This document shows positions 1-24,645 of a stretch of 27,249 nt of DNA, piece by piece. The notes under the pieces were generated by a model that worked only from the letters and a program-made list of their open reading frames with translations, was not told the origin of the DNA and did no database searches. The stretch is from positions 1-27,249 of the IMG/VR virus record IMGVR_UViG_3300047288_000081, one strand, 5' to 3'. The translations under genes and the position numbers were made by a program. The DNA comes from a virus. Lineage: Duplodnaviria > Caudoviricetes. Within the stretch, counting starts at the first letter, position 1; every line of letters starts with the position of its first letter.

Positions 1-139
1 CGTATTCCGATACCGAAATGTCAGTAAAGCTCGAAGCTATCTGAATTATCTTATCAATGTTTTCTAAACTCGAAGTTCGAATGTTTTCGTATTCAATAAA
101 CTCCTTAATAGTTAAATTGTTTACATTAGTTGGAATCAT
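1..139 (-). CDS. 5' part of a late gene running off the window edge (possible tail assembly chaperone)
   Basis: Not in the ORF track. ATG at 139-137 opens MIPTNVNNLTIKEFIEYENIRTSSLENIDKIIQIASSFTDISVSEY..., open to position 1. It directly follows a copy of the late promoter motif. The function is a guess from position. Confidence 0.7.
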   Translation of the reverse strand, partial: MIPTNVNNLTIKEFIEYENIRTSSLENIDKIIQIASSFTDISVSEY

Positions 140-171
140 ATATATATAACGTTTAAAATTTTACTTTTGTT
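140..171 (-). promoter_or_regulatory. Putative phage-sigma late promoter 1 (AACAA-N15-CGTTAT-N6-ATG)
   Basis: Minus strand reads AACAA AAGTAAAATTTTAAA CGTTAT ATATAT ATG, the same spacing as three other copies. Confidence 0.8.
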
Positions 172-293
172 TTCCAAACCATTGGTTAGGATTTAAATTA
201 ATTATTCAAATCAGTTGGTTACAAATTGTAGTTGTTTGTCATATTATATCCGTACATTTGCCTTTGTTTAGTCAAAGCATAACTTTACTCCAA

Positions 294-1463
294 CTACTCA
301 AAGTCCATCCAGTCTGATAAGCTACTTAACTTATTCATTGCCAAATATCTAATAGCATCAATAGCATGGTTATTGTCATCAACTGGATTCTGCATTTTAT
401 TACCATCCCTATCAACATCCCAACAATAGTTTCTTAACTCCTTAATTAAGTTAGTGCTATTCTCAGTTACTTTAAAGTGTATCTCTTGCAATAAAGATAT
501 TGAAGCACGTATACTATCCGGTCCTTTCTTAGCTGGACTAACCGAGAAACCTCTACGCCTTAAATCTTCTATTGACTTAGGTTCGGCACTATCAGCTATT
601 ATATCAGAATATTCCGATACTCCGAGTTTAATTAGTTTGTCAATAATATCTGAGTTAGTTAGTTTAGTTTGATATATCAATTCATCGAAGTAATATTGTT
701 GCCCTGACTTGTAACAAGCTACTAATGCAGTAGGATCATTCGAATATCCCCAATCTAAAGAATAAGCAATCAATTCAGCATCTTTAGGTATGGAAGGAGC
801 AATGGACCAATTTTCAAAGACCGTACCTTGTAACGTACCGATTTCGCCAAGACCATAAACACGATACCAATTCTCCCAATGTTTACTTGTTTTAGCTTTC
901 TCTTTAGCTTTTAATATAAAGTTCAATGCACTTTCAGGACATGCTTCGTTATCTAAATAATTGATAGTTAAAAAGTCCACATCATGATCACCCTTTAATT
1001 CTTTGTGAAACCAAAACTCGTTAACAGGATTCCAGTCTAAATAAATACCCTTCTTTGTTCGAGCTGCTAATTCAGTATAACTATGCAAGGTCATATTATT
1101 GCACTCATTCATATACAAGTAATCACGTCTTGCACCTCTTAGTTTTGAATCACTATCAGCACTAAAGAACTCAATAACCGATTGATTAGCAAACGTATAT
1201 TTAAAGTCAGTTCCATTCCACCTATCATCTTGCCAGCGTTTAGTTTCTACCATTATTTTTTTAAAGTCTTTGATTGCACCCCTCTTTAAATGTGGAATAG
1301 ATTCAGCAACAACACTTGTTTCGGTTAGTGGATATTCAGCAGCATCATCAATTAAGATAGGCAGAATCCCAAATGTTTTACCAGCACTTGTACCTCCTTG
1401 AATGCCTTTGACAAATTTAGTTAATTCAAGAATCTTATCTATAGCAGTTGTTCTTAGAAACAT
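294..1463 (-). CDS. terL: Terminase large subunit (PBSX/XtmB-like)
   Basis: Walker A-like GGTSAGKT, Walker B region LRGARRDYLYMNE, coupling motif DWNP, and RNase H-like nuclease motifs LDWGYSNDPTA, ADSAEPKSI and NHAIDAIRY. Confidence 0.95.
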   Translation of the reverse strand: MFLRTTAIDKILELTKFVKGIQGGTSAGKTFGILPILIDDAAEYPLTETSVVAESIPHLKRGAIKDFKKIMVETKRWQDDRWNGTDFKYTFANQSVIEFFSADSDSKLRGARRDYLYMNECNNMTLHSYTELAARTKKGIYLDWNPVNEFWFHKELKGDHDVDFLTINYLDNEACPESALNFILKAKEKAKTSKHWENWYRVYGLGEIGTLQGTVFENWSIAPSIPKDAELIAYSLDWGYSNDPTALVACYKSGQQYYFDELIYQTKLTNSDIIDKLIKLGVSEYSDIIADSAEPKSIEDLRRRGFSVSPAKKGPDSIRASISLLQEIHFKVTENSTNLIKELRNYCWDVDRDGNKMQNPVDDNNHAIDAIRYLAMNKLSSLSDWMDFE

Positions 1464-1475
1464 AACTATTTTTAA

Positions 1476-1937
1476 TTAGTCATTATTGTTTGTAGAAACA
1501 TCTAATTTTGGGATTCGTCTATCAGGGAATAATGGTTGTTCAGTGAATACTGTTTGAGTAATTTTTTCACTTAATCCTAATTGTTTAGCAATTAAACTTT
1601 CTTTATATATTCCAACTGCTGCTCTGCTAAAGTTATGTTTGTAAATATAGTCCTTTATGCGTGTAACGATAACGTAATAATCATCATAACTATTAGATCT
1701 ATTCTCAATATAATTAGATAATGTAACACTATCTTTGCCTTTGATTTCAAAGTAGTTAGAGCCGAAATATTTGAAGCCTTCCATTGTTGGAGGTTCTTGG
1801 GTGTGAATTATTACTGTTCCTAATTTAACGTGGGGTACTTCCATTTTTAATACTTCTAAAGAGTTTAGATATTCTTGAAACATATTCCATAACTCCTCAG
1901 GTGTTTCTATTATTTTTGTACCGAATGGTCTTGCCAT
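1476..1937 (-). CDS. terS: Terminase small subunit (P22 gp3-like DNA packaging protein)
   Basis: Immediately upstream of terL. Contains ETPEELW..F.EY, PPTMEGF and AAVGIYKESLIAKQLGL, which resemble the gp3 packaging family. Confidence 0.8.
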   Translation of the reverse strand: MARPFGTKIIETPEELWNMFQEYLNSLEVLKMEVPHVKLGTVIIHTQEPPTMEGFKYFGSNYFEIKGKDSVTLSNYIENRSNSYDDYYVIVTRIKDYIYKHNFSRAAVGIYKESLIAKQLGLSEKITQTVFTEQPLFPDRRIPKLDVSTNNND

Positions 1938-1960
1938 ATATAGTTTAGTCCGATAAGAGT

Positions 1961-2080
1961 TTATCCTTGTCCTTTATAAGTTTTAGTTTTCCTATCTCGT
2001 TTACAAATTGATTTCTTTGCCTTACCGACCTTTCGTTTACCGAATGTTTTTTTGATTGTTAGTTCTTTAGTCTTTGCCAT
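1961..2080 (-). CDS. Small, highly basic protein (39 aa)
   Basis: Hand-translated: MAKTKELTIKKTFGKRKVGKAKKSICKRDRKTKTYKGQG. It fills the gap before terS on the coding strand. Confidence 0.65.
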   Translation of the reverse strand: MAKTKELTIKKTFGKRKVGKAKKSICKRDRKTKTYKGQG

Positions 2081-2198
2081 TCCAAAAGTTTATTTGTTCG
2101 TATTCGTCTTGCATTAATTAAGTATTATATAGAATGTTCCGATAAGTGAACTTGTATAGCAGTCAAATGTTGGAACTAAAGTTGTGTAAGTAATATAA

Positions 2199-2441
2199 TT
2201 ATATCTCATTTTTTTTCTTTTTAACTTCTTCTTTTGTTAGTCCGACGGCCCAACGTAACATATCTAATAAACATTCTTTACAATTCGATAGTCCGATAGC
2301 TTGTTGTGGGAATTCTTCGTTATAAACTTCAATTACAGGTTGTAATACATCCATTGAGTTTTGAAGATGCTCGTTGTTAGCTACCCACATTCTAAATAGT
2401 TCAACGTTTTCTTTAATGTGATTTAAGTTTTCTGCTTTCAT
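2199..2441 (-). CDS. Hypothetical protein with CxxC motif
   Basis: 80-aa ORF whose start overlaps the sigma gene stop; contains CKEC. Confidence 0.75.
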   Translation of the reverse strand: MKAENLNHIKENVELFRMWVANNEHLQNSMDVLQPVIEVYNEEFPQQAIGLSNCKECLLDMLRWAVGLTKEEVKKKKNEI

Positions 2442-2962
2442 TTTAATTGGTTTTTAAGTTTAATTCTCGCATTCTCGTAAGCTTTCTTTAAGCTGCTACG
2501 ATTTATTTTAGTTCGTTGCTCCATCCTGTATAATGGTTCGATTTGAGCCATTACAAATACTTCTATATCGTGATCCTGGTTTAACAGTCCATCAAATATA
2601 CAATTTTTTATTCGTTCAATATTAATTTCATCAATAGGTAATAGTTCCATTGGTTCTTCAGCAAAGTCCCGTATTTCGTAATTAGACATTTCGTGAAGGC
2701 TTGATGTATTCCCGTCAATATGCTGGAGTGTTCGTGTGCGGTTTCTGAATAAGTCCCTTAACCGATATAGTCCGAGAATATAAAGTTTACCATCTTTATT
2801 ATATTTATCTATACATTCAGGTTTCTCAGCTAATAATTTAAAGTAAAGTTCGTGTAACATATCTTCTGCTAAGTACCTACCATTGTAATACTTTTTACAT
2901 ATTCTTTTGTAGTAAGAATAATAGTCCGCGAAGTGTTTATCGATTGTTGTTTTGATTGACAA
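2438..2962 (-). CDS. ECF-like sigma-70 family RNA polymerase sigma factor
   Basis: Region 2-like YYKRICKKYYNGRYLAEDMLHELYFKLL (compare ECF AEDLVQEVFLKL) and LYRLRDLFR. C-terminal region 4-like HTH LYRMEQRTKINRSSLKKAYENARIKLK. 174 aa is ECF size. The start codon (TTG) is uncertain. Confidence 0.75.
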   Translation of the reverse strand: MSIKTTIDKHFADYYSYYKRICKKYYNGRYLAEDMLHELYFKLLAEKPECIDKYNKDGKLYILGLYRLRDLFRNRTRTLQHIDGNTSSLHEMSNYEIRDFAEEPMELLPIDEINIERIKNCIFDGLLNQDHDIEVFVMAQIEPLYRMEQRTKINRSSLKKAYENARIKLKNQLK

Positions 2963-2990
2963 ATGTAATATAACTAATTTTATTTTGCAA
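2960..2990 (-). promoter_or_regulatory. Bacteroidota sigma-A type promoter (leftward, sigma/terminase operon)
   Basis: Minus strand TTG (2990-2988)-N20-TACATTTG (2967-2960) fits the TTG/TAnnTTTG consensus. Confidence 0.7.
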
Positions 2991-3015
2991 CTATCAATAT
3001 TATTTTGTATTTTTG
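2984..3015 (+). promoter_or_regulatory. Bacteroidota sigma-A type promoter (rightward, HTH gene)
   Basis: TTTG (2984-2987)-N20-TATTTTTG (3008-3015), with an ATG 4 nt later at 3020. Confidence 0.7.
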
Positions 3016-3019
3016 CAAT

Positions 3020-3229
3020 ATGAATAATCTTTTATCAGTTAGCGAGTTCGCAACCTTACATTCAGTAAGCCACCAAGCCATTTACTATAAAATTAAAACT
3101 AATCAAATTAAATATATAATGATTGGTAAAACAAAATTTATAGAGAAAACATCAAAATATAAACGCAGAGCTAAAAATAATTGCTTTGATAATCAAATAG
3201 TTAGAAATAAAAGTAAAAATAAACATTAA
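3020..3229 (+). CDS. Small HTH DNA-binding protein (excisionase/Cro-like)
   Basis: LLSVSEFATLHSVSHQAIYYKIKTNQIKYIMIG resembles an HTH_17-type fold. Start moved from TTG 3005 to ATG 3020 because 3005 lies inside the promoter. Confidence 0.7.
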   Translation: MNNLLSVSEFATLHSVSHQAIYYKIKTNQIKYIMIGKTKFIEKTSKYKRRAKNNCFDNQIVRNKSKNKH

Positions 3230-3234
3230 ATTAT

Positions 3235-3265
3235 TTTGCAGATATTAAAAATAAGTTTATATTTG
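3235..3265 (+). promoter_or_regulatory. Bacteroidota sigma-A type early promoter
   Basis: TTTG (3235-3238)-N19-TATATTTG (3258-3265), upstream of ATG 3299. Confidence 0.75.
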
Positions 3266-3298
3266 TATCATATTAATAATTTAAAACAAAAAGAAATC

Positions 3299-3457
3299 AT
3301 GAAAAAATTTAAAATTGACTTCCTGGATTGCGATAAATGTATTGCTTTCACAAAACTAACCAAGTGGGAAACCATTGAAGACTGCAGACTTTATGCATAC
3401 GTTGTAATGATGAACAATGTTAAAACTATTCAAACCTTTAATATATCTGCTGTATGA
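3299..3457 (+). CDS. Hypothetical early protein
   Basis: Track ORF 3236-3457 restarted at ATG 3299 (MKKFKIDFLD...), which is downstream of the promoter and preceded by the A-rich AAAAAGAAATC. Confidence 0.65.
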   Translation: MKKFKIDFLDCDKCIAFTKLTKWETIEDCRLYAYVVMMNNVKTIQTFNISAV

Positions 3458-3573
3458 ATATAGATATTAGAGCATCAAACGTTGTTTATATAACAATCGG
3501 AGAATACACCTATTATATAGATGATAGTACTGGAGAACAAATAATTGAAGTTTACCCAACTCACGACTTTTAA
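3454..3573 (+). CDS. Hypothetical small protein (39 aa)
   Basis: Hand-translated MNIDIRASNVVYITIGEYTYYIDDSTGEQIIEVYPTHDF; ATGA overlap with the upstream gene. Confidence 0.6.
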   Translation: MNIDIRASNVVYITIGEYTYYIDDSTGEQIIEVYPTHDF

Positions 3574-3592
3574 CCCCTAAAAAAAACAAATC

Positions 3593-3862
3593 ATGAAAAT
3601 CGAAATCAAATCCACCAAAGAATTTATTGAGGTTGTAGACATCCAACTTCCTAAATTTAGAAAATCTTTAGTTTTTTATTACAAAATCTTTAGCGAAGAT
3701 AAATGTATAATGTTAGAAACTGGAACAACCCCCTCAATTAGTGTATGCCCTATTTCTCGAGCTTATTATTCCGATACGATACAAGATTGCTCAGAAGCTG
3801 ATTACATGGCTGTTTATCACGATACTTTAAAAACCATTTTAGACGAGAAACATGAACTATAA
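3593..3862 (+). CDS. Hypothetical protein
   Basis: 89-aa ORF with AAATCATG start context. Confidence 0.7.
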   Translation: MKIEIKSTKEFIEVVDIQLPKFRKSLVFYYKIFSEDKCIMLETGTTPSISVCPISRAYYSDTIQDCSEADYMAVYHDTLKTILDEKHEL

Positions 3863-4028
3863 TAACGAACATTACTTATGCATCAAGCGTGCATTGTTAA
3901 AAGTTAATATCGATATTAATGATGTTCCTGAAGTTCGTGAAATTATCCTTCATGCTTTAGAACTTACTTATATGGATGGTAAAATTGAAACTTTAAGAAA
4001 CGAAATTAAACTTTTAAAACATGGATAA
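3852..4028 (+). CDS. Hypothetical protein (58 aa)
   Basis: Hand-translated MNYNNEHYLCIKRALLKVNIDINDVPEVREIILHALELTYMDGKIETLRNEIKLLKHG; tiles the gap with short overlaps. Confidence 0.6.
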   Translation: MNYNNEHYLCIKRALLKVNIDINDVPEVREIILHALELTYMDGKIETLRNEIKLLKHG

Positions 4029-4140
4029 TCAAGTATGGTGCATGGCCCGATATTGTCATGCTATTAATTGGTGGAATAATAAAGGCCACTTTAACAAAGA
4101 ACTTTATGAACGTTTCTTAGCCATCCGATATGCCGACTGA
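4021..4140 (+). CDS. Hypothetical small protein (39 aa)
   Basis: Hand-translated MDNQVWCMARYCHAINWWNNKGHFNKELYERFLAIRYAD; tiles the gap. Confidence 0.5.
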   Translation: MDNQVWCMARYCHAINWWNNKGHFNKELYERFLAIRYAD

Positions 4141-4336
4141 AATCTTTATTAGCAAATCAATGATGTATATCGAATTAGACATAGACCAACTTAACCGACT
4201 ACAAATGTTTAATAATCGCCTTAAATCACATATTGATGACCTACCAAGAAATTCTACAGGCAAACGTGCAAGGTACTTTGAACAAGTAAAAGTAATGGAA
4301 CTATTTATTCAAGAAAACTTAAAAAAATTTATATGA
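4130..4336 (+). CDS. Hypothetical protein
   Basis: Track ORF; the true start may be ATG 4160. Confidence 0.6.
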   Translation: MPTEIFISKSMMYIELDIDQLNRLQMFNNRLKSHIDDLPRNSTGKRARYFEQVKVMELFIQENLKKFI

Positions 4337-4512
4337 AAAAAGAAATAGCAGAATCCTACGAAAAAATATTTAAACTAGAAAGTTTGATATTAGAACAAGC
4401 AGCTCAAGGGCAAATAACTTGCGGACTTGAAATGCAAATGAAAATCGAAACAAGTAATTATTTACGTTTAACCCATTCAATTTTAAGATATGATGTACGA
4501 CTTAGACCCTGA
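4333..4512 (+). CDS. Hypothetical protein (59 aa)
   Basis: Hand-translated MKKEIAESYEKIFKLESLILEQAAQGQITCGLEMQMKIETSNYLRLTHSILRYDVRLRP; ATGA overlap with the upstream gene. Confidence 0.55.
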   Translation: MKKEIAESYEKIFKLESLILEQAAQGQITCGLEMQMKIETSNYLRLTHSILRYDVRLRP

Positions 4513-4723
4513 AGACTATACTAGTGGAAGCTACAATCAATGCTGGCTTACCGAACACTGGTACCCAAACGAGTTATTAGTTTTAGATATTAATTACCCG
4601 GAACATCGTTACATATTTAAAGATGAAGCAATTCGATATGTTGAGCTTATATCTAAAGAAAATGACTTTACAGATGAGGAGAAACTAAATTACTTGTTAG
4701 ACATTTTAGAACAAAAAATATAA
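4490..4723 (+). CDS. Hypothetical protein
   Basis: 77-aa ORF in the early operon. Confidence 0.65.
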   Translation: MMYDLDPEDYTSGSYNQCWLTEHWYPNELLVLDINYPEHRYIFKDEAIRYVELISKENDFTDEEKLNYLLDILEQKI

Positions 4724-4742
4724 ACCAATAAAAACAAAAAAC

Positions 4743-5015
4743 ATGTATAAAGTATTATTAGAATTCAATGAAGAGCAACAACAGTTACATTATAATTCTA
4801 TAAAGAATAATGTGCCGGAAACAAAAGAAAATGAAAATGGTTGGAAAACTTTAAATGTTTGTGAGAATATGCATTACGCTCAACTATTTGCAGATTTTTT
4901 ACACGTGCAATATCTTGAAAACCGCAAAGCATCATTTATTGAATTAAAAAAAACAGTAGATAACTTAAATAAATTTTTATCAGTAATTTATCAAATACAT
5001 AATATAAACCAATAA
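4743..5015 (+). CDS. Hypothetical protein, flanked by a 16-bp direct repeat
   Basis: 90-aa ORF; AATATAAACCAATAAA at 4717-4732 and 5001-5016. Confidence 0.7.
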   Translation: MYKVLLEFNEEQQQLHYNSIKNNVPETKENENGWKTLNVCENMHYAQLFADFLHVQYLENRKASFIELKKTVDNLNKFLSVIYQIHNINQ

Positions 5016-5028
5016 ACCCAAATAAATC

Positions 5029-5271
5029 ATGAGCAAAATTATCGCAGCATCAATCGACTTAACTAAACTAGATAAGTCAAGAATTAAACCAGGTAAGAAT
5101 GGAGCAGAATACTATGACATTAGTATTATCCTAAACGACCAACCTAACCAATATGGACAAGATGCATCCATAACTACAGGTCAAACCAAAGAAGAAAGAG
5201 CAGCCAAAGTTAAGGCAAGCTACATTGGAAACGGAAAAACCGTTTACGATTCAAACAATTCACCATTCTAA
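5029..5271 (+). CDS. Small phage protein, possible ssDNA-binding protein
   Basis: SIDLTKLDK...GKNGAEY...YGQD...YIGNGK, ending in PF like SSB tails, and adjacent to ERF. The function is inferred. Confidence 0.5.
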   Translation: MSKIIAASIDLTKLDKSRIKPGKNGAEYYDISIILNDQPNQYGQDASITTGQTKEERAAKVKASYIGNGKTVYDSNNSPF

Positions 5272-5288
5272 AACCCCAAAAAGAAATC

Positions 5289-5816
5289 ATGAAAACCCCA
5301 AATCTCAATTCAAAGTTATTACAATTTCAAAGCAAAGTAAATGCTATTAAGAAGGATGGTAAGAATCCACACTTTAAAAGCTCATATACTACTTTAAACG
5401 ACATCTTAGCAGAAGTTAAGCCATTGCTATCAGAACTTGGTTTAATCATTCTACAGCCAATTAATCATGATCTAGTTACAACTGTTATTACTTGTGCCGA
5501 AACAGGTGAGTCCGTTAGCAGTTCGATAAGTATGCCTAGCGGTTTAAATCCACAACAACTTGGTTCTGCAGTTACTTACTTTAGAAGATATAATATTAGT
5601 TCGTTACTAGCTTTAGAATCAACTGATGATGATGGGAACGATGCAAGCGTAAAACCTAAGCAAGAAAGTAAACCAATGTTAACTCCCGAAACTTTAAAGA
5701 AAATGATTACTGCCATACAGGAAGGTAAGTCCGATAAAGTAAAGGAAGCAATGGAGAACTATACAATTAGCGGTCCTCAGTCTAACGTTCTTAAACTTGC
5801 TTTAATAAATGTTTAA
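5289..5816 (+). CDS. erf: ERF-family single-strand annealing protein
   Basis: KDGKNPHFKSSY and PQQLGSAVTYFRRY...DDDGN are ERF hallmark motifs. Confidence 0.92.
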   Translation: MKTPNLNSKLLQFQSKVNAIKKDGKNPHFKSSYTTLNDILAEVKPLLSELGLIILQPINHDLVTTVITCAETGESVSSSISMPSGLNPQQLGSAVTYFRRYNISSLLALESTDDDGNDASVKPKQESKPMLTPETLKKMITAIQEGKSDKVKEAMENYTISGPQSNVLKLALINV

Positions 5817-6483
5817 CGATTTAAAATTCAGAGCATCGGCTATTGGTCAAATCATGACTAATGGCCGAGCCAAAAACGAAATGGGTGAGACCTGTAAATC
5901 GTATTTAAAGAATTTGTTTATCGAAAAAACTTATGGCATCCGAAAGGAATTTACTAATAAATATGTTGAGAAAGGATTAGAAGTTGAGGACATCGCTATT
6001 AGTACCTATTCAGTTTTTAAAGGTGGCTTTTACACAAAGAATGAGCAATGGTATACAAATGAGTTTTTAAGCGGAACTCCCGACATCGTATCCGATAACG
6101 TAATTGACATAAAGAGTAGTTGGGACATTTATACGTTTCCACATTTTGACACCGAGATCCCGACTAAAGGTTACTTTTATCAGCTCCAGGCGTACATGGA
6201 ATTAACAGGATTAGAAGATGCTTGTTTAGCTTACGTTTTAATTGACACCCCTACCCAATTAGTAGAAGATGAAAAAAGAAGGTTAAGTTGGAAGATGGGA
6301 ATGATTGATAGTGAAAATCCTGAATACTTATTAGCAGTTGAGGAAATTGAACGTAATCACAGTTACAATAATATTCCGATAGCAAAACGTATAAAGGAAT
6401 TTCACATTAAAAAAGATAACCAAGTAATCGAATCTATGTATGCGAGAATAAAAGAATGTAGAACTTATCTTAATAGTTTGTAA
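5809..6483 (+). CDS. YqaJ/lambda-exonuclease-like PD-(D/E)xK nuclease
   Basis: FRASAIG, KGLEVE, GTPD...DIKSS and YFYQLQAYMELTG; paired with ERF. Confidence 0.85.
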   Translation: MFNDLKFRASAIGQIMTNGRAKNEMGETCKSYLKNLFIEKTYGIRKEFTNKYVEKGLEVEDIAISTYSVFKGGFYTKNEQWYTNEFLSGTPDIVSDNVIDIKSSWDIYTFPHFDTEIPTKGYFYQLQAYMELTGLEDACLAYVLIDTPTQLVEDEKRRLSWKMGMIDSENPEYLLAVEEIERNHSYNNIPIAKRIKEFHIKKDNQVIESMYARIKECRTYLNSL

Positions 6484-6484
6484 T

Positions 6485-7003: not shown

Positions 7004-7986
7004 TGAAAAATGCATTTGTAAGTAATTTAATTAAATCCTATCTGACTAAGTTCCCGAAGGTCCCATCTTTAACTTTGGCTAAAAAAATCTATGCAGAAAA
7101 CAATAAACAGTTTGCAGATATTGATGTTGTTAGAAGTTCGATAAGATATTACCGAGGTAAAAAAGGCGAAGCAGCAAAAAAAAATTTAGCAACCTTTGAG
7201 TTCTTAGATCAAAACATTGAGTTTGTAATGCCTGAATCTTATGCTGAAACTTTCGAACCATACGAAATTAGTCAGTCAAGAACCTTAATTATATCGGACT
7301 TACATATACCTTACCAGGATAACGATTCAATACAAAAAGCAATAAATTATGGTAAAGAAAAAAAAGTAAATTGTATTTTAATCAATGGTGATGTTTTAGA
7401 CTTTGCTGGTATTAGTAGACATGAGAAAGATTGGAGACAAAGACAGGTCCATCAAGAGTTTGAAGCTGCACGTATATTTTTGAGTTCGCTACGTGAACAC
7501 TTCCCAAAAGCTAAGATAGTTTTCAAGTTAGGCAATCACGATGAACGCTGGGAAAAATGGTTATTTTTAAAAGCACCCGAAATATTTGATGATCCTGAGT
7601 TTAAATTAGAAAGTAGATTAAAATTAGGTGAGTTAAAAATTGATATTGTAAAAGAAAAAAGACCTATTCGTATTGGTAAACTAACTGTATTACATGGACA
7701 TGAATTATTTGGTGGAAGTGGTGGAGTTAATCCAGCTCGAGGAACGTTTTTAAAAACTTTAGAGAATGTAGTAGTAGGTCATTATCATAAAACAAGTTCT
7801 AATACTGAAGCTTCAATGTATGGAGATGTTTTTAGTGTTCACTCCGTTGGTTGTTTGTGTGGTAAAACTCCTTACTATATGCCAATAAATAAATGGAACA
7901 CTGGCTTCGCATATTGCGAATTAGATATTAAAACAGGTAATTATACTTTTTACAATTTAAAAATTATTAACGGAAAAATATACTAA
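7003..7986 (+). CDS. Calcineurin-like metallophosphoesterase
   Basis: Metal-binding motifs SDLH, NGDVLD, GNHD, HGH and GHYH. Confidence 0.9.
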   Translation: MKNAFVSNLIKSYLTKFPKVPSLTLAKKIYAENNKQFADIDVVRSSIRYYRGKKGEAAKKNLATFEFLDQNIEFVMPESYAETFEPYEISQSRTLIISDLHIPYQDNDSIQKAINYGKEKKVNCILINGDVLDFAGISRHEKDWRQRQVHQEFEAARIFLSSLREHFPKAKIVFKLGNHDERWEKWLFLKAPEIFDDPEFKLESRLKLGELKIDIVKEKRPIRIGKLTVLHGHELFGGSGGVNPARGTFLKTLENVVVGHYHKTSSNTEASMYGDVFSVHSVGCLCGKTPYYMPINKWNTGFAYCELDIKTGNYTFYNLKIINGKIY

Positions 7987-8027: not shown

Positions 8028-8036
8028 TTATTAAAT

Positions 8037-8291: not shown

Positions 8292-8300
8292 AAAAGACTA

Positions 8301-8495: not shown

Positions 8496-8497
8496 CT

Positions 8498-8766: not shown

Positions 8767-9459
8767 ATGGCTAAACTAGGTTATACATGGTACCCAAAGG
8801 ATTGGGGCAATTCAGATAGTGTTTTTGAATTATCTTTATGCGAACGTGGATTATATAGAGAATTTATTGATTTCGCAATGTTAAATGATAATAAAACTGA
8901 GCTAAAAAAAGATGTTTGGGTTCGTAAATTTTCAGTTTCGATGAATGAATTAAATTTGATTTTAGATAAATTATTACAATTAAATCTTATTGAAATTAAC
9001 GAAAATATATTATTTATTCCTAGCTGCGAAAACAGATTGAATTTATCTCGTGGAGGTAAGAAAGGCAAGCCAACCAGGGAAAGTATTAATAACTTAAATA
9101 ATCAAAATAAACAAGGTACCTCGGAACCTATCTCGGAACCTACCTCGGAACAAAGAGAAAGAGAAAGAGAAAGAGAAATAGAAAGAGAAATAGAAAGAGA
9201 AATAGAAAGAGAAAGGCAAAATAATGGAATTATAAATTCAATAGAAAATTATTTTAAAGAATTACCAACCTCAACTAATTTTGAATTAATTGCTATTGCT
9301 TTAAATATTCCAAAAGATAAATTAACTTTAAAAATTGCAGACTTTAAAAAAACTTCTAAAATTGATTATCTTAACTTTAACGAATTTTGCAACCACTTTA
9401 AGAACTGGGCTAATAAAAATAATTCTAATAACCTAAAACTAAAAACAAGCTTCAAATGA
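8767..9459 (+). CDS. Putative replication initiator (YdaU/DUF1376-like N-terminus)
   Basis: WYPKDW...LSLCERGLYREFID N-terminus, RGGKKG, a central repeat-encoded linker, and a position directly upstream of DnaB (lambda O-like layout). Confidence 0.7.
   Translation: MAKLGYTWYPKDWGNSDSVFELSLCERGLYREFIDFAMLNDNKTELKKDVWVRKFSVSMNELNLILDKLLQLNLIEINENILFIPSCENRLNLSRGGKKGKPTRESINNLNNQNKQGTSEPISEPTSEQREREREREIEREIEREIERERQNNGIINSIENYFKELPTSTNFELIAIALNIPKDKLTLKIADFKKTSKIDYLNFNEFCNHFKNWANKNNSNNLKLKTSFK
9117..9216. repeat. Iteron-like repeats and purine tract, candidate replication origin
   Basis: 3 x 12 bp TA(C/T)CTCGGAAC(C/A) at 9117-9152, then (AGAGAA)4 at 9154-9177 and (ATAGAAAGAGAA)3 at 9178-9213. 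Confidence 0.75.
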
Positions 9460-17607: not shown

Positions 17608-17618
17608 TTTATATATTA

Positions 17619-17966: not shown

Positions 17967-18571
17967 TATGTTAAAGTTTGTATTATTGTAACTGGTGCCG
18001 GGTCAGTTAATGTTTGTATTAGTTGTTGTAAAACTTCAATCGTATAATAAGAACCGCAAGGCACTACCGCAATAACATTTCCATCTTGATCTATTATTCT
18101 TACATCATCAGGATTAATAACTGAAGGCGAACCTGTTATTGGTAAAGAGCAAGCATCCCATTCAAAGATTGATTTAAACTCTACATCAAAATACCAACCA
18201 GCAACCTCATCGTTAAAAGCATCTACAAAATCAGTTAAAGTTGCATTTTCGTTTACATCAATAAGTTCTGAGAAATCAAATTGTTTAAAATAAATTAAAG
18301 TATCTAAAGCTATTTGCTTACAATCAGATAAGACCTCAAGTTGATTTCTTAAACCCTTCTTGCTTTTATCACAAATGTAAAATCTTATAACAGTAATATC
18401 ACTAGTCCCTTCAACTCTGTTAGGTTGCAAAGTACCAAATAACATAGGATATTTAATTGACTGACCGCCATTTAATTGATCCCAAGGGTCACCAAAATAC
18501 CAACTCTTAATTTGCTTGTGAGCAGTTGAGTACGTTGCTATTGTTGATATTAATTTGTTTAAGGTAAACAT
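17966..18571 (-). CDS. Virion structural protein (possible tail terminator/completion protein)
   Basis: 201-aa ORF after the portal and adaptor genes; function inferred from position and size. Confidence 0.5.
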   Translation of the reverse strand: MFTLNKLISTIATYSTAHKQIKSWYFGDPWDQLNGGQSIKYPMLFGTLQPNRVEGTSDITVIRFYICDKSKKGLRNQLEVLSDCKQIALDTLIYFKQFDFSELIDVNENATLTDFVDAFNDEVAGWYFDVEFKSIFEWDACSLPITGSPSVINPDDVRIIDQDGNVIAVVPCGSYYTIEVLQQLIQTLTDPAPVTIIQTLT

Positions 18572-18628
18572 CTATTAATTTCTTATTTTTTTTAATGTAC
18601 TTTTTAATTTCAATCTTTGTTTTTTTTC

Positions 18629-19210
18629 TTATTGCCATATAGGATTGTCTCGGTTATCTTGAATATTACTATAATCTTTTTTACCCAAAATTCTAGTGCC
18701 TAAATAAATATCAACATCGTAAGCATTTCGTTCAGGGAATATATCCGCTCCTGTATTTGTGTTATAAGTTGGGTAAGTAGAGTTATTATAGTTTAAATAT
18801 TTTATCATTCTATCACCGTACATCTCGCCATTTGTTTTCCAAATATTCATTAAATATTCCATGTCGTTAGTTGGTATCGGTTGCCCGTTATCACTGCTAT
18901 TAGTCATTATGCCTTTGTTAGCATATCGGAATTTAAACGTTGGTGAGCTTTCATACATAATATAGTGAACCATCATTTTTAAAATGTAGTTATCTATTAT
19001 TGTTTTGTAAGCTGCTGGAATAGTTGTTGCTGAATTTATATAAGCTAAGATATGAGTTTCAATAGTATTATATAAACTAGTTCCCAAAAGTGGAAGTATG
19101 TATTTATCCTGTACCAATTCAATTACTGGTGTTATCTTATCGTACTCCGTGTTATCGTCAATAACCGAATGTCTAATTAAATAATCTTGTCCTATCCAAA
19201 GTGTTGCCAT
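18629..19210 (-). CDS. Putative head-tail adaptor protein
   Basis: Directly after the portal gene; helical pattern QDKYILPLLGTSLY. Function inferred. Confidence 0.55.
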   Translation of the reverse strand: MATLWIGQDYLIRHSVIDDNTEYDKITPVIELVQDKYILPLLGTSLYNTIETHILAYINSATTIPAAYKTIIDNYILKMMVHYIMYESSPTFKFRYANKGIMTNSSDNGQPIPTNDMEYLMNIWKTNGEMYGDRMIKYLNYNNSTYPTYNTNTGADIFPERNAYDVDIYLGTRILGKKDYSNIQDNRDNPIWQ

Positions 19211-19211
19211 G

Positions 19212-21347
19212 TTATTTCTTTTTACGTTTTATCCTAGTTTCACCAACCCAAATGTGTCGGCACCAAGGAGTTGTTTCAGTTCCATCATTATAAAATCCAC
19301 CTCTGAAATCCCAGGCCGAAGAACCAAATTCGTTGCTGTAATCCTCAATTTCATTATATGTTAATCTTTTAGCTTTTAATTTGCCATCGACTAATTCAGT
19401 TCCTGAAGTTAATTTGTACATTCTTCTGCAAAAATCTCTTGTTGTATCAATTATTTCATCTCCACTTACATCAGGTCTTATATCGTATCTATAAACTGTA
19501 TAAATTTCAGTCTCATAATCTGCAGTATCTTTATCTAATCCTTTTTCAGTTGGTGTAAATATACCTCCTAAAGTATCAATTAATTTTTTAGCAGCTAACC
19601 ATTCTAATACAGTTGTAACTTTATCTTTATCTACATTTAATGCCTTAGCAAGTTCTTCAGGCTTAGCAAATGGATTACCTTTTAATTGGTTTAATATTCC
19701 ATTTCTTAAATCGGTTTCCGATAACTGAAATCTATTAGCTGTGTATAATTTTTGTTTAGATAACTCGAATTTTAAAACTTGTTTTGAATCCTTAAAGTTT
19801 ACATATTCAATATCTATGATTTCATCTTCATCATCTATTTGTATTGCTCGAGCAGTTGCCCATTCAATAAATCTTTTTTCTTTATCATTTGATTGTTGAA
19901 CTTTTACAACCTCATTATTCATTTCTTCTTGTGCTATTCCTAAGAACGTTAAAGCATCAGCATCACTTAATCCAAATCCTGTTTTAATCATTATTAATGC
20001 CTGGTCCGCTGTATAATCACCTTTCTTTAACTTGTTGGCTATATTAAAAAGATTTTGTCTTTGTCTGCCTGTTAAGTTTTTAAGGTGTTCGTTAACTTGT
20101 ATTTCTTCTTGAATTACAGTCGCACTCGGAGTGCCAATTTCTGCAGCTTCAATCTTTAACCCGTATTTTTCAATTATATAATTAGTTACGATATTAGGGT
20201 CTCTAGCATTTAAAGCATTGATAACATTTTGATTTTCTAATGGAAGTTCCTTGCCTATTGGCTGAACTTGTTCTACTTCAAATGTAATATCTAAACCAGT
20301 TTTTAGTTTAAACATTTTATCAATAAACTTATTGAATGCTACTTGTTCAATCTTAGCATATTCGTTAATAAATAATTCGTGAGCTAAATCTAATTCGTTA
20401 CGATCGCCTAAAGTACCCTCAGTTTTGATTTTAAATAATACTCCTGGCACGTTATGTCCTGTTATTATCTTTTGTTGGTTACGTTTATTTAACGCTTCGT
20501 ATTGGTCTGCTAATCCTGTTGGAGTTACATTTACAACTTCTGCTCCTTTGCCATCGGGATTAGTAAATGATAATACTACTTTACCAGCATTTTGTGTGCC
20601 TTGATGTTTCTCTTGGAATCTTTCTTTAATATCTTCTTTTACTTCAGGTGTTAATTTACCACTAAAAAAAGTAATAATATGACCAGCACTAAATCCATTC
20701 TTTACTAAAGAGTGAAAAAAGTTACTAATCTCAATATCGGTATTTATGTCTAATAGAACACTTGAATAATCGGGTGAAGGGTAAAGTCCATCTAATTCAT
20801 TTAAAGACGGTGTAAAGTCCTTAGAATAGTAAATTGAGGCACCTATAAAGCCTTCCTTGTAAAATGGAAAGTAAGTCTTTTTTAAATGGTAACTTTTAGC
20901 AGTCCAATCTTCTGAATACCAAACTCCGCAATTATCCGCACTTAGTCTTATCTTACCCATATCTAAATGGTAAAACTCAATCGGTTGACCTATTAAATTT
21001 GTAGTTACTTGACATGCGAAACCTCCATAAATTGCTTTGTCGGAATCACATTTTTTTCTTAATTCATACCATGAATCAAATCTATTTGCCTTCGCTAAAA
21101 ATTGTTGAACTTGTGGTAAATCTTGACTAGGTACTATTTTCAGTCCGCTAAGATAACGTGCTTTACCTTTTAATATTGCAGCGTGTTCAGGATGATTGTT
21201 ATAAGAATTTAATAATTCTTTAGGGAAGTTATTGTCTTTGCCCCACTTAACAAATTCTCCAGCAGTATCTATTTTATAAGTCGGAAGTTGGTTAACATCC
21301 ATCTTAATAGTAATTATGTCATTATATACTTCTAATTTTTTAGCCAT
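19212..21347 (-). CDS. Portal protein with a long C-terminal extension
   Basis: WGKDNNFP..L...YNNHPEHAAI, YPSPDY, NGFSAG, GTQNAGK and IITGHNV...LF resemble PBSX-type portals; about 300 additional C-terminal residues. Confidence 0.8.
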   Translation of the reverse strand: MAKKLEVYNDIITIKMDVNQLPTYKIDTAGEFVKWGKDNNFPKELLNSYNNHPEHAAILKGKARYLSGLKIVPSQDLPQVQQFLAKANRFDSWYELRKKCDSDKAIYGGFACQVTTNLIGQPIEFYHLDMGKIRLSADNCGVWYSEDWTAKSYHLKKTYFPFYKEGFIGASIYYSKDFTPSLNELDGLYPSPDYSSVLLDINTDIEISNFFHSLVKNGFSAGHIITFFSGKLTPEVKEDIKERFQEKHQGTQNAGKVVLSFTNPDGKGAEVVNVTPTGLADQYEALNKRNQQKIITGHNVPGVLFKIKTEGTLGDRNELDLAHELFINEYAKIEQVAFNKFIDKMFKLKTGLDITFEVEQVQPIGKELPLENQNVINALNARDPNIVTNYIIEKYGLKIEAAEIGTPSATVIQEEIQVNEHLKNLTGRQRQNLFNIANKLKKGDYTADQALIMIKTGFGLSDADALTFLGIAQEEMNNEVVKVQQSNDKEKRFIEWATARAIQIDDEDEIIDIEYVNFKDSKQVLKFELSKQKLYTANRFQLSETDLRNGILNQLKGNPFAKPEELAKALNVDKDKVTTVLEWLAAKKLIDTLGGIFTPTEKGLDKDTADYETEIYTVYRYDIRPDVSGDEIIDTTRDFCRRMYKLTSGTELVDGKLKAKRLTYNEIEDYSNEFGSSAWDFRGGFYNDGTETTPWCRHIWVGETRIKRKKK

Positions 21348-21726
21348 TGTAAACCTTGTTAGTTATTGCTCCGCCTTGATATTCTTTAAATGTAATTTTT
21401 GTTAAATCATAACAAGTTGCATAACCCACCTCCACTACATTTAATCCAGTTGGATTAGTATTACTATTGCCTACTTGTTCGTAAATCGTATATTCGTAAT
21501 CGCCTACTGTTAATGATATTTGTGCAGTTGTTGGTGTTGCTGTTTCAACTATTATAAATTCATTATATCGTTCCTTTTGTGTGCTTATATCCGCTGGTAA
21601 AAAGTATTGTGATGTATTTGTTTGAACGTTTTTAAACTGAAATAAAAAATAAGGATTTGCTAATAAACATTTCTCCTGTAATGTTAAGATAACTGTATTA
21701 CTATTATTCTTATTAATTGTTATCAT
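21340..21726 (-). CDS. Hypothetical virion protein (beta-rich)
   Basis: 128-aa ORF with GDYEYTIYEQ...VEVG, preceded by a late promoter motif. Confidence 0.65.
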   Translation of the reverse strand: MITINKNNSNTVILTLQEKCLLANPYFLFQFKNVQTNTSQYFLPADISTQKERYNEFIIVETATPTTAQISLTVGDYEYTIYEQVGNSNTNPTGLNVVEVGYATCYDLTKITFKEYQGGAITNKVYNG

Positions 21727-21758
21727 ACTTATATAACGTACAAATATATCAATTTGTT
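21727..21758 (-). promoter_or_regulatory. Putative phage-sigma late promoter 2
   Basis: AACAA ATTGATATATTTGTA CGTTAT ATAAGT ATG. Confidence 0.8.
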
Positions 21759-21762
21759 ATTT

Positions 21763-21795
21763 AAAAAAAAAGCCCAAGCTTACGGGCCTGAGCTT
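21763..21795 (-). terminator. Rho-independent terminator after the major tail gene
   Basis: Minus strand AAGCTCAGGC-CCGTAA-GCTTGGGCTT followed by a U run; two G-U pairs work only on this strand. Confidence 0.85.
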
Positions 21796-21814
21796 AACTT
21801 TAAAAAGTTATTGA

Positions 21815-22342
21815 TTAAGCTATTAAGTTAGCTATCAAAGTACTTGTTACTTTGTAAATTGGAGCTATCTCCTTACCTTTAAAAGAAAGTTTGTGTCCAT
21901 TCATGTCAGTAATTGCAGTTCCGCTTTCAGTTGACCAAGTTAATAAATCCATTCCTTGATCCTTACCAAATAACCAATAGTCACCGTTAATATCTTGAAC
22001 CATCATAGTCAAAACGTTTTGAGCAACTAATTGAATTTCTTGAATAACTGTAGAAGTTAATTTTTTAATAGTGAAATCAATTTGTGGTTCGTATGAAATA
22101 GTTCCTGAAGCTGGAGTATAAGTACCAGGACTTGTAAACATTCCCATCTCTTTATCCAAAGAATACACTCGGTACTTCTTGCCTGTTGCTAAAGTATAAG
22201 CTGTAACCACTCCAGCAGTTGCTGTAAAAGCATAACCAGTTCCTGAGTTGTTTTCAAATTCAGTTAGATAAACATTTTTTATTCCACCAGCTCCACCTTT
22301 ACAACCTAGAAAGGTATAACCGCTTGTTAATACACATGGCAT
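21815..22342 (-). CDS. Putative major tail tube protein
   Basis: 175-aa beta-rich ORF (GC..G.GGIK.VY...D.NG.YWL.G...G...SGTA..D.NG..L.F) after the capsid gene and before a terminator. Confidence 0.65.
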   Translation of the reverse strand: MPCVLTSGYTFLGCKGGAGGIKNVYLTEFENNSGTGYAFTATAGVVTAYTLATGKKYRVYSLDKEMGMFTSPGTYTPASGTISYEPQIDFTIKKLTSTVIQEIQLVAQNVLTMMVQDINGDYWLFGKDQGMDLLTWSTESGTAITDMNGHKLSFKGKEIAPIYKVTSTLIANLIA

Positions 22343-22372
22343 AATTTTATAATTTTAATTTGTTTATAATAA

Positions 22373-22388
22373 GGAGGGTTGCCCCTCC
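22373..22388 (-). terminator. GNRA hairpin after the capsid gene (weak terminator or mRNA stabiliser)
   Basis: GGAGGG-GCAA-CCCTCC followed by TTATT on the minus strand. Confidence 0.6.
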
Positions 22389-22395
22389 ATTAAAT

Positions 22396-23403
22396 TTATC
22401 CTACGTAAAGAACATTCATTGCTTGATTCACAACGTGTGCGAAGATTGTCATGATATTCTTAACGAACATATCTTCACGATTGAAAGCAATTTTGTTAAC
22501 TTCAAATTTATTGATATCGCTCACTAAATCAGTACACCAGTAAATATAATCTGGTCTTGCAGCTATAACAACGTTCTCAGCTAAAGGCACGAATTGAATT
22601 TGAATTCCATTGTAGAAATAAGCTTCAGTTGCTTGACCTAAATTAGTTACTGCGAATAAATCACGGTAAGTAGCAGATACGTTATAAATATTAATTAATT
22701 GTTTGTGAGAATAAGGAGCATAAATAAATGGCTTAACTGCACCATTAATAACTCTTGCTGGGATAGCTGCGTACACTTTTGCGTATTCAGTTTGGATATT
22801 AGTACTAGATATAGTCGTTCCTAAAACCTTAATACGAGTTCCTAAAGCACCACCATTATAAATCATTCTAGTTGCAACACCATCAAGTAATGAAGCTGAA
22901 CCTGAAGCAACTAATGCTTGTTCAACTGAACTAACTTGATTCTGAGCAGTTCCTGGAGTTAAAGCTGCAACTGCAGTACGTGTAGCACTTGTTGCACCAT
23001 TCCAAAACTTACTTTGTAAATCTTCAGCAATTAAATTACCATAAGACTTTAATACTACTGAACCAAATTCACTTGATTCAATTTCCCATGCACCTGGCTT
23101 CATAGTCGTTTTGAAACGTGATGAACGCAAAGCATTAGGATCAAATTCTTGGTAGTACATTAATTTAGTTGGAGTAATCAAAGTATCAACTAATCCAAAA
23201 GTTCCTGATGAAGAAGGAGCACCACTTGCAAATGCTTGAGCTGTTACTGTGTTATCATTTTCAGTAAAGATTGTATCCGCTTTAATATCGGTTGCTAAAC
23301 TTACTAAGTTCTTATTTACAGTATCATTTGCAAATAAAATTTCTTCGATTATCGGTTGTACTGCTACACCTCTTAAATCTACTATTGTTGCTGAAATTGC
23401 CAT
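22396..23403 (-). CDS. Major capsid protein
   Basis: 335 aa, after the protease and scaffold genes; IAEDLQSKFWNG and LLDG pattern; followed by a hairpin. Confidence 0.75.
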   Translation of the reverse strand: MAISATIVDLRGVAVQPIIEEILFANDTVNKNLVSLATDIKADTIFTENDNTVTAQAFASGAPSSSGTFGLVDTLITPTKLMYYQEFDPNALRSSRFKTTMKPGAWEIESSEFGSVVLKSYGNLIAEDLQSKFWNGATSATRTAVAALTPGTAQNQVSSVEQALVASGSASLLDGVATRMIYNGGALGTRIKVLGTTISSTNIQTEYAKVYAAIPARVINGAVKPFIYAPYSHKQLINIYNVSATYRDLFAVTNLGQATEAYFYNGIQIQFVPLAENVVIAARPDYIYWCTDLVSDINKFEVNKIAFNREDMFVKNIMTIFAHVVNQAMNVLYVG

Positions 23404-23435
23404 TTTATATTTTGTTTTAAATTATTATTAATTAA

Positions 23436-24020
23436 TTATTTTGATAGTCTAAATTTTTCTAAAGGACTTAATTCTTCCCAACTTTTAGAAACCTTAGTTT
23501 CATTTTGTATTGGAGTGTTTAAAATCTCATTTACTACTTTGTTAAGTAAAACAACTTGTTTTTTTAAACTAGATATTTGACTTTCTAAAGATACTTGCAT
23601 GTTACTCATTTGAGTTTTCATATCGGGCATCTTTAATTCTGGAGCAACTACTTCAGGTAACTCAGGAGCTTCTTCTGCTTTACTAGCAATCTCAGCTACT
23701 ATTCCACTTGCAATAGTTACGATGTTGCCATCTTCCATTGTGTATTCGCCATCCATTACTGGACTAGGTGTACCACTTGTAATATCCATTATTGCAGTTC
23801 CGATAACTAATTCACCATCGTATGCGAATACTAAACCATCAACTGTTTTAGCTTCTTTCATTTTAACTTCAGGAGTTTGCTCAGTACTTGGTTTTTTTTC
23901 GTCAGTTGGCATTGTAGATGGTGCAGCAACTGGATTAAGACCTTCTAAGGCCACACGTTCATCAACACTAAGTTTAGTTATGATAAAGTCTTTAATTTTT
24001 GAGATAACATTTGTTTCCAT
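23436..24020 (-). CDS. Putative capsid scaffolding protein
   Basis: Acidic and Pro-rich, PVMDGEYTMEDG.IVTI..G.V.EI, C-terminal coiled coil; lies between protease and capsid genes. Confidence 0.65.
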   Translation of the reverse strand: METNVISKIKDFIITKLSVDERVALEGLNPVAAPSTMPTDEKKPSTEQTPEVKMKEAKTVDGLVFAYDGELVIGTAIMDITSGTPSPVMDGEYTMEDGNIVTIASGIVAEIASKAEEAPELPEVVAPELKMPDMKTQMSNMQVSLESQISSLKKQVVLLNKVVNEILNTPIQNETKVSKSWEELSPLEKFRLSK

Positions 24021-24052
24021 ATTTATATAACGTTTAAAGTTTTTAAATTGTT
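24021..24052 (-). promoter_or_regulatory. Putative phage-sigma late promoter 3 (embedded in the protease 3' end)
   Basis: AACAA TTTAAAAACTTTAAA CGTTAT ATAAAT ATG. Confidence 0.8.
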
Positions 24053-24613
24053 TATTATTTTTATTACTTGTTCATCTGACATAGTTACTTTATTGACTTC
24101 AGCTGTTTTAAAAAGGCCATCAATCGAAACACCGTTAACTTCACCCGACTTGATTTTTGTCCATACATCATCCGATTCAACCTTGCCCGTAAGAAACCAA
24201 GTTCCCTCTGGCAATCCTTCGAAGCCTTTTGCTGTTGCAAATCTTTCATTATTTAATAATACTGATTCAAAAAATGTAACTCCTTCTATTAATTTACTTG
24301 AATGCTCAATATCTACAGCACTGCTTAAATTATCTTTAACCCATTTTTGTTCTACTAATTCAATCGTTTCTTTATCGAACATCAAATTAAATTCCTCACC
24401 AGCTATATTCCGATAAATTAATTGATTAGGTATAAGTACAGGAGTAAATATAATTCTTTTGTCTTCGTTTTGAATTGCTAATTTGATTTCAGATTGTTTG
24501 TTAAACTTAATCCAATTTATTTGAATTGCTGGATCACTTACTAAACTAACTGTCTTTAATCCCATCTCGGAATCTTCGACATCTATTATTGCTTTCTTAA
24601 TTGGTAATTCCAT
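24023..24613 (-). CDS. Prohead serine protease (XkdF-like)
   Basis: VSLVSDPAI, LIPNQLIYR, IEH, LPEGTWF...KV...VW.KIKSGEVNGVSIDG. Confidence 0.85.
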   Translation of the reverse strand: MELPIKKAIIDVEDSEMGLKTVSLVSDPAIQINWIKFNKQSEIKLAIQNEDKRIIFTPVLIPNQLIYRNIAGEEFNLMFDKETIELVEQKWVKDNLSSAVDIEHSSKLIEGVTFFESVLLNNERFATAKGFEGLPEGTWFLTGKVESDDVWTKIKSGEVNGVSIDGLFKTAEVNKVTMSDEQVIKIINNLKTLNVI

Positions 24614-24645
24614 AATCTAATAACGTTTAAATTTTAAATATTGTT
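24614..24645 (-). promoter_or_regulatory. Putative phage-sigma late promoter 4
   Basis: AACAA TATTTAAAATTTAAA CGTTAT TAGATT ATG. Confidence 0.8.

Follow-up and report, generated by a model that had tools for sequence, protein, structure and literature searches.

Bacterial extracytoplasmic function (ECF) sigma factors of the SigW/SigX/SigM type recognize AAC/CGT promoters, and gp55 of phage T4 depends on co-activators and works from a -10 box alone. Coliphage phiEco32 and Salmonella phage 7-11 (Kuravirus-type) encode an outlier ECF-like sigma factor for their structural genes, which are served by a few conserved promoters after a host-driven early phase (PMC4331800, PMC7881722). The promoter consensus of these phages, TAATGTATA, is an extended -10 element with no recognizable -35 (PMC4331800, PMC5333181). 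T4 gp55 and SPO1 gp28/gp34 replace the host sigma factor for middle or late genes, and a survey of phage sigma factors reported two Bacteroidetes phages with a sigma gene (10.1101/2021.11.12.468384). In Gram-positive siphoviruses, the gene of the regulator RinA/Ltr lies before the gene of the terminase small subunit (terS), and its product controls the morphogenesis genes (PMC3152322). The present analysis concerns a sigma-like gene and four promoter-like sites in a 27,249-nucleotide stretch of tailed-phage DNA (Caudoviricetes; positions 1 to 27,249 of IMG/VR record IMGVR_UViG_3300047288_000081), which is referred to as the window.

Taken together, sequence comparison and a structural model make it very probable that the four sites are virion-gene promoters read by host RNA polymerase carrying the phage's own ECF-like sigma factor, encoded at 2438-2962. 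In natural relatives, one base of the -10 box was found to change with the sigma allele.

Four sites and a divergent ECF-like sigma factor

The motif AACAA-N15-CGTTAT has four exact copies in the window, all on the minus strand, to whose virion genes the sites are restricted (4/4), and each is followed after 6 nucleotides (nt) by an ATG. The preliminary description had placed these copies at 140-171, 21727-21758, 24021-24052 and 24614-24645, with invariant boxes, a 15-nt spacing and 6 nt to the ATG. Exact matches were located on the minus strand and all four agree in these respects; the common -10 box, ACGTTAT, proved one base longer than had been claimed, giving AACAA-N14-ACGTTAT-N6-ATG. The extension to TTTAAACGTTAT was also confirmed in three of the four copies. 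The sites and the sigma gene (protein length in amino acids, aa) are as follows.

137 to 171 (boxes 146-171), minus strand: site 1, before the gene that follows terL (the terminase large subunit gene), which in complete relatives is followed by four more genes, the last tape-measure-like (gene order in L001).
21724 to 21758 (boxes 21733-21758), minus strand: site 2, before the 128-aa gene leading the portal block and 12 nt past a terminator-like hairpin.
24018 to 24052 (boxes 24027-24052), minus strand: site 3, before the likely scaffold gene and within the 3' end of the protease gene.
24611 to 24645 (boxes 24620-24645), minus strand: site 4, before the prohead protease gene; its first A also ends the stop codon of the tape-measure-like gene.
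2438 to 2962, minus strand: divergent ECF-like sigma factor, 174 aa, with sigma2 at about residues 1-77, a linker, and sigma4 at about residues 109-174; start at TTG 2962 or ATC 2956, uncertain.

A genome scan for enrichment at start codons, as the preliminary description had proposed, gave four copies against 0.04-0.08 expected: 0.084 from the box counts, and means of 0.04 and 0.06 in Markov simulations (300 at each of two orders), in which none was accompanied by an ATG. CGTTAT itself occurs 22 times in the window, and the earlier remark that the other occurrences lack the upstream box, made from spot checks, holds for all 18 of them, none having AACAA 15 nt upstream. Among patterns of the form 5mer-gap-6mer-ATG, solely this motif (in two overlapping descriptions) reached four copies, and none did so in 20 simulated sequences. 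Bipartite words at four copies do arise in these genomes when no ATG anchor is required, the top ones of the window being simple repeats. With a weight matrix, the window and the complete relative G001 each yielded exactly four sites, with scores of 28.7-31.8 and next-best scores of 9.5 in the window and 14.7 in G001. The bipartite spacing is rigid, being N15 at all four window sites; N14 was seen in one relative contig of 33 (L047). No copy of the motif precedes terS, the tape-measure-like gene, the capsid-sized gene or the one following it. In scans of the window, no host-type promoter or host -7 box was found at the four sites and sigma70-type promoters appeared at chance level only; neither an Rfam match nor a shared RNA fold was found for the site region.

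Two other stretches stood out in the window. At 7942-7968, an AT-rich, partly palindromic stretch near the end of a phosphoesterase gene gave weak matrix scores on both strands and recurs in G003 at 565-591 and 33765. At 9250-9340 (plus strand), GAGAGA-type purine-rich repeats in a DnaD-like gene (EREREREI) form the top unanchored repeat of the window and are possibly origin-related.

The protein encoded at 2438-2962 had been claimed as an ECF-like sigma factor, and a sigma2/sigma4 fold is supported by an AlphaFold2 model and by structure matches, with the protein falling outside the classified ECF groups. The model has two helical domains and an unstructured linker at residues 77-111 (mean predicted local distance difference test score 89.7). 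In a structure search of 48,161 chains, sigma chains stood in the top nine rows. Residues 1-77 superposed on sigma2 of SigR with Z 9.5 (root-mean-square deviation 2.1 over 72) and residues 109-174 on region 4 of E. coli sigmaE with Z 8.8 (1.9 over 63), values that are not decisive alone and weaken the case to that extent, since Z under about 13 may just reflect a common helical arrangement. The rows listed by Foldseek were nearly all sigma factors or sigma complexes, ECF first. A sequence search of the PDB gave weak matches only, the first being an unrelated RpiR regulator.

By profile, TIGR02937 covered residues 7-173 (E 1.2e-5, 25 bits against a cut-off of 42.9) and Pfam Sigma70_r2 gave E 0.081 (13.2 bits against a cut-off of 24); Pfam sigma4 had no match in the window protein. 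In 44 homologs, a selection from 73 search matches plus close loci, TIGR02937 matched 33 at E<=0.1 and Sigma70_r2 matched 10 weakly, and in nine homologs the sigma matches all lay below cut-off. Of the traits of ECF sigma factors, the predicted fold displays sigma2, a sigma4 helix-turn-helix, a short linker, and no sigma1 or sigma3. Two traits are missing. First, neither a curated profile cut-off nor a classified ECF group was reached. Second, no autoregulatory site, a common trait though not a universal one, stands before the sigma gene, which has a host-type promoter instead. Because it falls below the curated cut-offs, the protein is called ECF-like rather than a member of a classified ECF group; the current ECF classification did not capture phage ECFs (PMC7826278).

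Two sigma alleles and one base of the -10 box

Among 29 close loci, 21 carry the allele of the window (allele A) and eight carry a second one (allele B), the two being 71-74% identical. Their differences lie in the sigma2 half and the linker, and the sequences are identical from residue 122 except for the last residues. On contigs holding both a sigma gene and a site, allele A went with CGTTAT in 17/17 contigs other than the window (15 from IMG/VR, 2 metagenome), and allele B with CATTAT in 4/4 (L021, L023, L024 (G005) and L262); the -35 box is the same in both promoter types. The -10 box thus covaries with the sigma2 half through a G-to-A switch, an association with a Fisher p of 1.7e-4 among contigs that are not independent. 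G003 has CATTAT at all four of its sites. The protease search yielded 33 contigs with at least two sites, and within 32 of them the sites agree. Searching in reverse, starting from CATTAT sites, brought up 127 stretches, most of them unrelated; family genes were present at 18 of the 114 new loci, and a sigma gene at one (allele B, included in the counts above).

Perfect linkage is confined to very few bases. Of 695 variable columns across 21340-25200, only 24624, 24031 and 24026 showed r2 = 1 with the state of site 3, and these are two promoter bases and one neighbor. The protease gene between 24624 and 24031 had a median r2 of 0.04-0.06. Both alleles of terL, which is located between the sigma gene and site 1, were found with both site types, and the allele-B contigs are not clonal, their capsid genes being 85-95% identical. 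Since the terL alleles mix and the protease gene is unlinked, clonal descent fails to account for the linkage of sigma and box, and the genes between the sites undergo free recombination.

The sites themselves are subject to rearrangement. An 11-bp deletion of the site-4 spacer occurs in 16/33 contigs, and an upstream AACAT then stands at the same 15-nt spacing (16/16). This AACAT contains the spare AAC at 24646-24656 (minus strand), which lies one helical turn above site 4, within the final codons of the tape-measure-like gene. In L046 and L052, site 4 has the spacer of site 1, which suggests exchange between promoter copies; in L047 this spacer is one base short.

As an observation of its own, L155:7109-7580 (P0004) is an allele-B sigma gene whose C-terminal domain is replaced by unrelated-looking sequence, either an assembly artefact or a swapped sigma4. 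Mosaicism is strong in terL (99% versus 78%) and in the tape-measure-like gene (45-93%) among otherwise near-identical phages.

A lead to the basis of the switch is residue 74, which is Asn in allele A and His in allele B. A weak profile alignment to SigR (E about 0.4) places it at the position of Asn84 of RpoE, given a SigR-to-RpoE residue numbering that we take to be correct, and the structural end-point is consistent with this. D70, considered earlier as the Asn84 equivalent, was abandoned; the SigR alignment put residue 74 there. In a published substitution series at this position, Asn gave 0.40 for CG and 0.09 for CA, and His gave 0.11 for CG and 0.21 for CA, with AC favored most by His at 0.29 (10.1101/2020.06.23.168245; PMC7776599 Dataset S3). 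By analogy, Asn in allele A (CG) and His in allele B (CA over CG) would fit the direction of the switch.

Family, host and surroundings

Genomes at 34-67% capsid identity have the sigma-like gene, a gene for a CxxC protein and the terminase consecutively. Before the same genes, the boxes differ by clade, for example ACACGTT in G011; AGTATTAT in G012 (five sites, one before the CxxC gene); AAACTTCTTTATTAT in G014; GGATAT in G013; YRCTAT in G006/G009; TGCCAC in G007/G008/G010; and TACTAT in G018. The diagonal of a cross-table of these clade motifs is not evidence because the motifs were picked by eye, and the table was replaced by a motif-free test. In that test, the upstream regions of orthologous genes were more alike than random sets in 9/10 genomes (p<=0.03; p<=0.0004 in seven). 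Box spacing is constant within the other clades while the distance to the ATG varies.

A narrow sigma profile (A1) missed five distant genomes, whose sigma factors were recovered with reading frames and a wider profile. The records of G015 and G017 have a sigma gene and hold none of the scored structural genes, and the G020 record, a fragment, has no sigma gene. In a 19-row sigma tree, 8/16 inner branches were unresolved, and no claim of co-evolution is based on it. The idea that the spacer lengthens with the sigma protein (12 nt for proteins of 153-157 aa and 15 nt for those of 172-208 aa) was dropped because aligning on the conserved C makes the spacers 14 versus 15, and because N15 also occurs in a clade whose sigma has 165 aa.

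The host-type promoter TTG-N19-21-TAnnTTTG occurs five times in the window, three times before early genes, once pointing into the sigma gene and once inside a tail gene. The TTG-N-TAnnTTTG consensus is that of Bacteroidota housekeeping promoters, which are unlike those of E. coli (PMC6847099). The capsid-sized protein has three relatives in species genomes, all in Bacteroidota bins (by bin assignment). These observations point to a Bacteroidota host. Two of the host-type promoters bear on the sigma gene.

2960 to 2990, minus strand: host-type Bacteroidota promoter TTG-N20-TACATTTG, directed into the sigma gene, whose TTG it overlaps.
2985 to 3015, plus strand: host-type promoter in divergent orientation, ahead of the first gene of the early region (weak helix-turn-helix matches), with ATG 4 nt past its -7 box.

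A host -7 box lies directly at the 5' end of the sigma gene in 14/18 records (10 TAnnTTTG, 4 TAnnTTTA), and published transcription starts fall 4-5 nt beyond the Bacteroidota -7 box (PMC6847099). In G006 and G009, an ATG stands 4 nt past this box. In the window, the real start of the sigma gene is uncertain because the TTG taken as the start sits in the host-type -7 box; an in-frame ATC follows 3 nt further. In four of the 18 records (G014, G015, G016 and G017), the conserved N-terminus comes right after a stop codon in the same frame, which leaves no ATG, GTG or TTG to start from. In the start region (window 2956-2967; G014-G017, L162-L173), ATC is the commonest first candidate, with GTC in L162. 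For some clades, this points to leaderless translation from a codon other than AUG. Several database homologs of the sigma factor begin 25-45 residues in, as expected if gene callers miss the start.

At the four sites, the C of the -10 box lies 12 nt before the ATG, and the transcripts would therefore be leaderless or nearly so. The gene content suggests that the genes headed by the sites are late genes. A Shine-Dalgarno-like word precedes 2/43 starts in the window, and A stands at -3 in 29/43. RNA contigs from six freshwater RNA libraries (6/23 runs) were not counted as evidence; contigs show neither starts nor levels. In three of these runs, high-depth pieces end at 24002-24009, a short way into the scaffold gene. 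Pieces of low depth span the site, and some ends are followed by adapters.

The window has 31% G+C, and the complete genome of this phage type is about 33 kb. Replication and recombination genes form a plus-strand block, and packaging, head, tail and lysis-like genes a minus-strand block. The features around the sites and the sigma gene are listed below.

1 to 139, minus strand: 5' part of the post-terL gene, whose product has 203 aa in L001 and no PHROG match.
294 to 1463, minus strand: terL, two alleles (about 99% and 78%), each with both promoter types.
1476 to 1937, minus strand: terS, no motif upstream.
2199 to 2441, minus strand: CxxC protein, 80 aa, overlapping the sigma stop; a conserved neighbor of sigma.
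19212 to 21347, minus strand: portal protein (Pfam PF04860).
21340 to 21726, minus strand: 128-aa gene, first of the portal block, no family match.
21770 to 21795, minus strand: hairpin and T run resembling an intrinsic terminator, directly ahead of site 2.
22396 to 23403, minus strand: likely major capsid protein (inferred label), sharing 50% identity with a Cellulophaga phage phi46:1 virion protein, no motif upstream.
23436 to 24020, minus strand: likely scaffold protein (inferred label; weak PHROG 24921), between the protease and the capsid-sized gene.
24023 to 24613, minus strand: XkdF-like prohead protease (Pfam PF14550, E 6.7e-15).
24645 to 26813, minus strand: tape-measure-like protein (PHROG E 5e-6), with another AAC in its final codons, 11 nt upstream of site 4.

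Four terminator-like hairpins were found in the window against 3.0 expected by chance, so the one at 21770..21795 is informative by position only. With regard to the anti-sigma gene that may adjoin an ECF sigma gene, a CxxC-type gene follows sigma in 78/80 sigma loci; the CxxC protein of the window has no family match, and prediction of its complex with the sigma factor was uninformative (score 0.00). In G012, the CxxC gene is preceded by a late-type site, which would suit a feedback factor. Cellulophaga phage phi46:1 gave no sigma-profile match and has none of the A or B sites; at L075 2806-3600, it shows a duplicated block within genes gp04 and gp05.

Readings of the sites and known systems

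The earlier claim that the phage sigma factor reads these sites gains support from the predicted fold, the enrichment at start codons and the covariation in related contigs. In the proposed mechanism, the host sigma factor would transcribe the phage sigma gene from TTG-N20-TACATTTG, yielding an mRNA with little or no leader and a weak start codon, which by this proposal would delay the build-up of sigma. The phage sigma factor would then initiate four transcripts, each no more than one or two bases from the ATG, with sigma4 predicted on AACAA and sigma2 predicted to bind and open ACGTTAT. We propose that selection maintains the specificity types, since each sigma allele has to fit every one of its sites, and sequence exchange among promoter copies may help a specificity switch spread. 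A broader picture is tentative and, on balance, doubtful: a fast-evolving sigma/promoter lock and key throughout this family of small freshwater Bacteroidota phages, changed by sigma2 swaps and gene conversion, with partly incompatible regulatory groups coexisting in one recombining population, a leaderless sigma mRNA starting at AUC, and leaderless late mRNAs as well.

Several observations weigh against the phage sigma factor as reader of the sites. The window protein lies below the curated cut-offs in Pfam and TIGR02937, and Foldseek gave no match at E<=0.001. terS and terL have no site, nor does the protease gene in several clades, and the box lies 11-36 nt from the start in some clades. 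Just four allele-B contigs carry both sigma and site, and L064 is mixed across its sites (A, A, G). The capsid-gene segment 22500-22970 and the 128-aa gene at 21340-21726 follow promoter type with r2 of about 0.8, so some lineage structure exists; in B types, the 128-aa gene is 75% identical and starts with GTG. In the motif-free test, G013, with three sites, was not significant (p 0.076). The Asn84 code is loose and does not explain G012 and G014, and many substitutions at that position move preference to CA (PMC7776599 Dataset S3). Leaderless mRNAs are rare in Flavobacterium psychrophilum, at 5.5% (PMC9723704).

The first alternative is that a host ECF sigma factor reads the sites, that the two phage types reflect different hosts or host sigma factors, and that the sigma-like gene has another role. 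In its favor, F. psychrophilum has a class of promoters whose -10 box contains CGT and which are ascribed to ECF sigmas (PMC9723704); with such promoters in that bacterium, the orthogonality to the host suggested in the preliminary description is not established. The partial agreement of capsid and 128-aa alleles with promoter type also speaks for it. However, the box changes with the sigma2 half of the phage protein while sigma4 and the -35 box both stay fixed, and at least nine box types accompany different phage sigma factors across clades, beyond one host sigma class. We regard this alternative as improbable.

Slightly less probable still is an origin of the covariation in shared ancestry and gene conversion, in which two lineages each homogenized a repeat and the link to sigma is incidental. 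Spacers do seem to have been exchanged between copies (L046, L052, L047), and four allele-B contigs with partial lineage structure are what such a history could leave. However, both terL alleles occur with both promoter types although terL lies between sigma and site 1, the allele-B contigs do not form a clone, and the gene flanked by two perfectly linked bases is itself unlinked; conversion also leaves unexplained a change confined to the sigma2 half. The least probable alternative, a late activator or sigma-appropriation factor recruiting the host holoenzyme (a gene before terS, as for RinA-type activators, PMC3152322) or a translation signal in the mRNA (a 6-nt distance to ATG fixed in the clade of the window), is at odds with the sigma2-like domain beside the helix-turn-helix domain, the lack of a site before terS and of a host -7 box at the four sites, the lack of a shared RNA fold or Rfam match in the region, and the varying ATG distance under fixed box spacing in other clades.

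If the phage sigma factor is the reader of the sites, the system offers a view of regulatory change that is usually inferred from distant genomes or engineered mutants, namely a regulator and all its sites changing specificity together. Here two states, one promoter base apart, coexist in a recombining natural population, and the switch is therefore testable with two proteins and two 35-bp sequences. About ten sigma/box pairs in the wider family are candidate switch parts for Bacteroidota. Phage sigma factors in Bacteroidota are probably undercounted because they fall below annotation cut-offs and some clades lack a standard start codon.

The preliminary description had suggested that the sigma/promoter pair may be undescribed. 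This may hold for the family, as nothing was found on it, or on allele-linked promoter switching in phages, in literature coverage that left out most subscription papers; it does not extend to the principle, since ECF-like late sigma factors are known from phiEco32 and 7-11. A tblastn search over 50,697 deposited phage records (E<=1) gave no match to the window sigma factor, and no profile comparison with the phiEco32/7-11 sigma was run.

Compared to RinA/Ltr, the regulator gene of the window likewise precedes terS; unlike these activators, which act at one promoter before terS, the system has four bipartite sites that are scattered, with terS preceded by none of them, and its regulator includes a sigma2 domain. 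As with T4 gp55 and SPO1 gp28/gp34, a phage sigma factor would stand in for that of the host, whereas T4 and SPO1 are large phages with non-ECF sigmas. The likeness to bacterial ECF sigma factors (SigW/SigX/SigM type; F. psychrophilum SM6 class) lies in sigma2, a short linker and sigma4, in the AAC-N17-CGT geometry, and in a -10 specificity apparently set near the Asn84 position (10.1101/2020.06.23.168245; PMC7776599 Dataset S3). Unlike them, the window protein stays below the profile cut-offs, its own promoter is of the host housekeeping type, and its predicted regulon consists of four virion operons. Finally, the system resembles that of coliphage phiEco32 and Salmonella phage 7-11 in its phage-encoded outlier ECF-like sigma factor and its few conserved structural-gene promoters, and differs from it in a conserved -35 box (AACAA), a fixed spacing, a sigma4 domain, a genome of about 33 kb and a likely Bacteroidota host.

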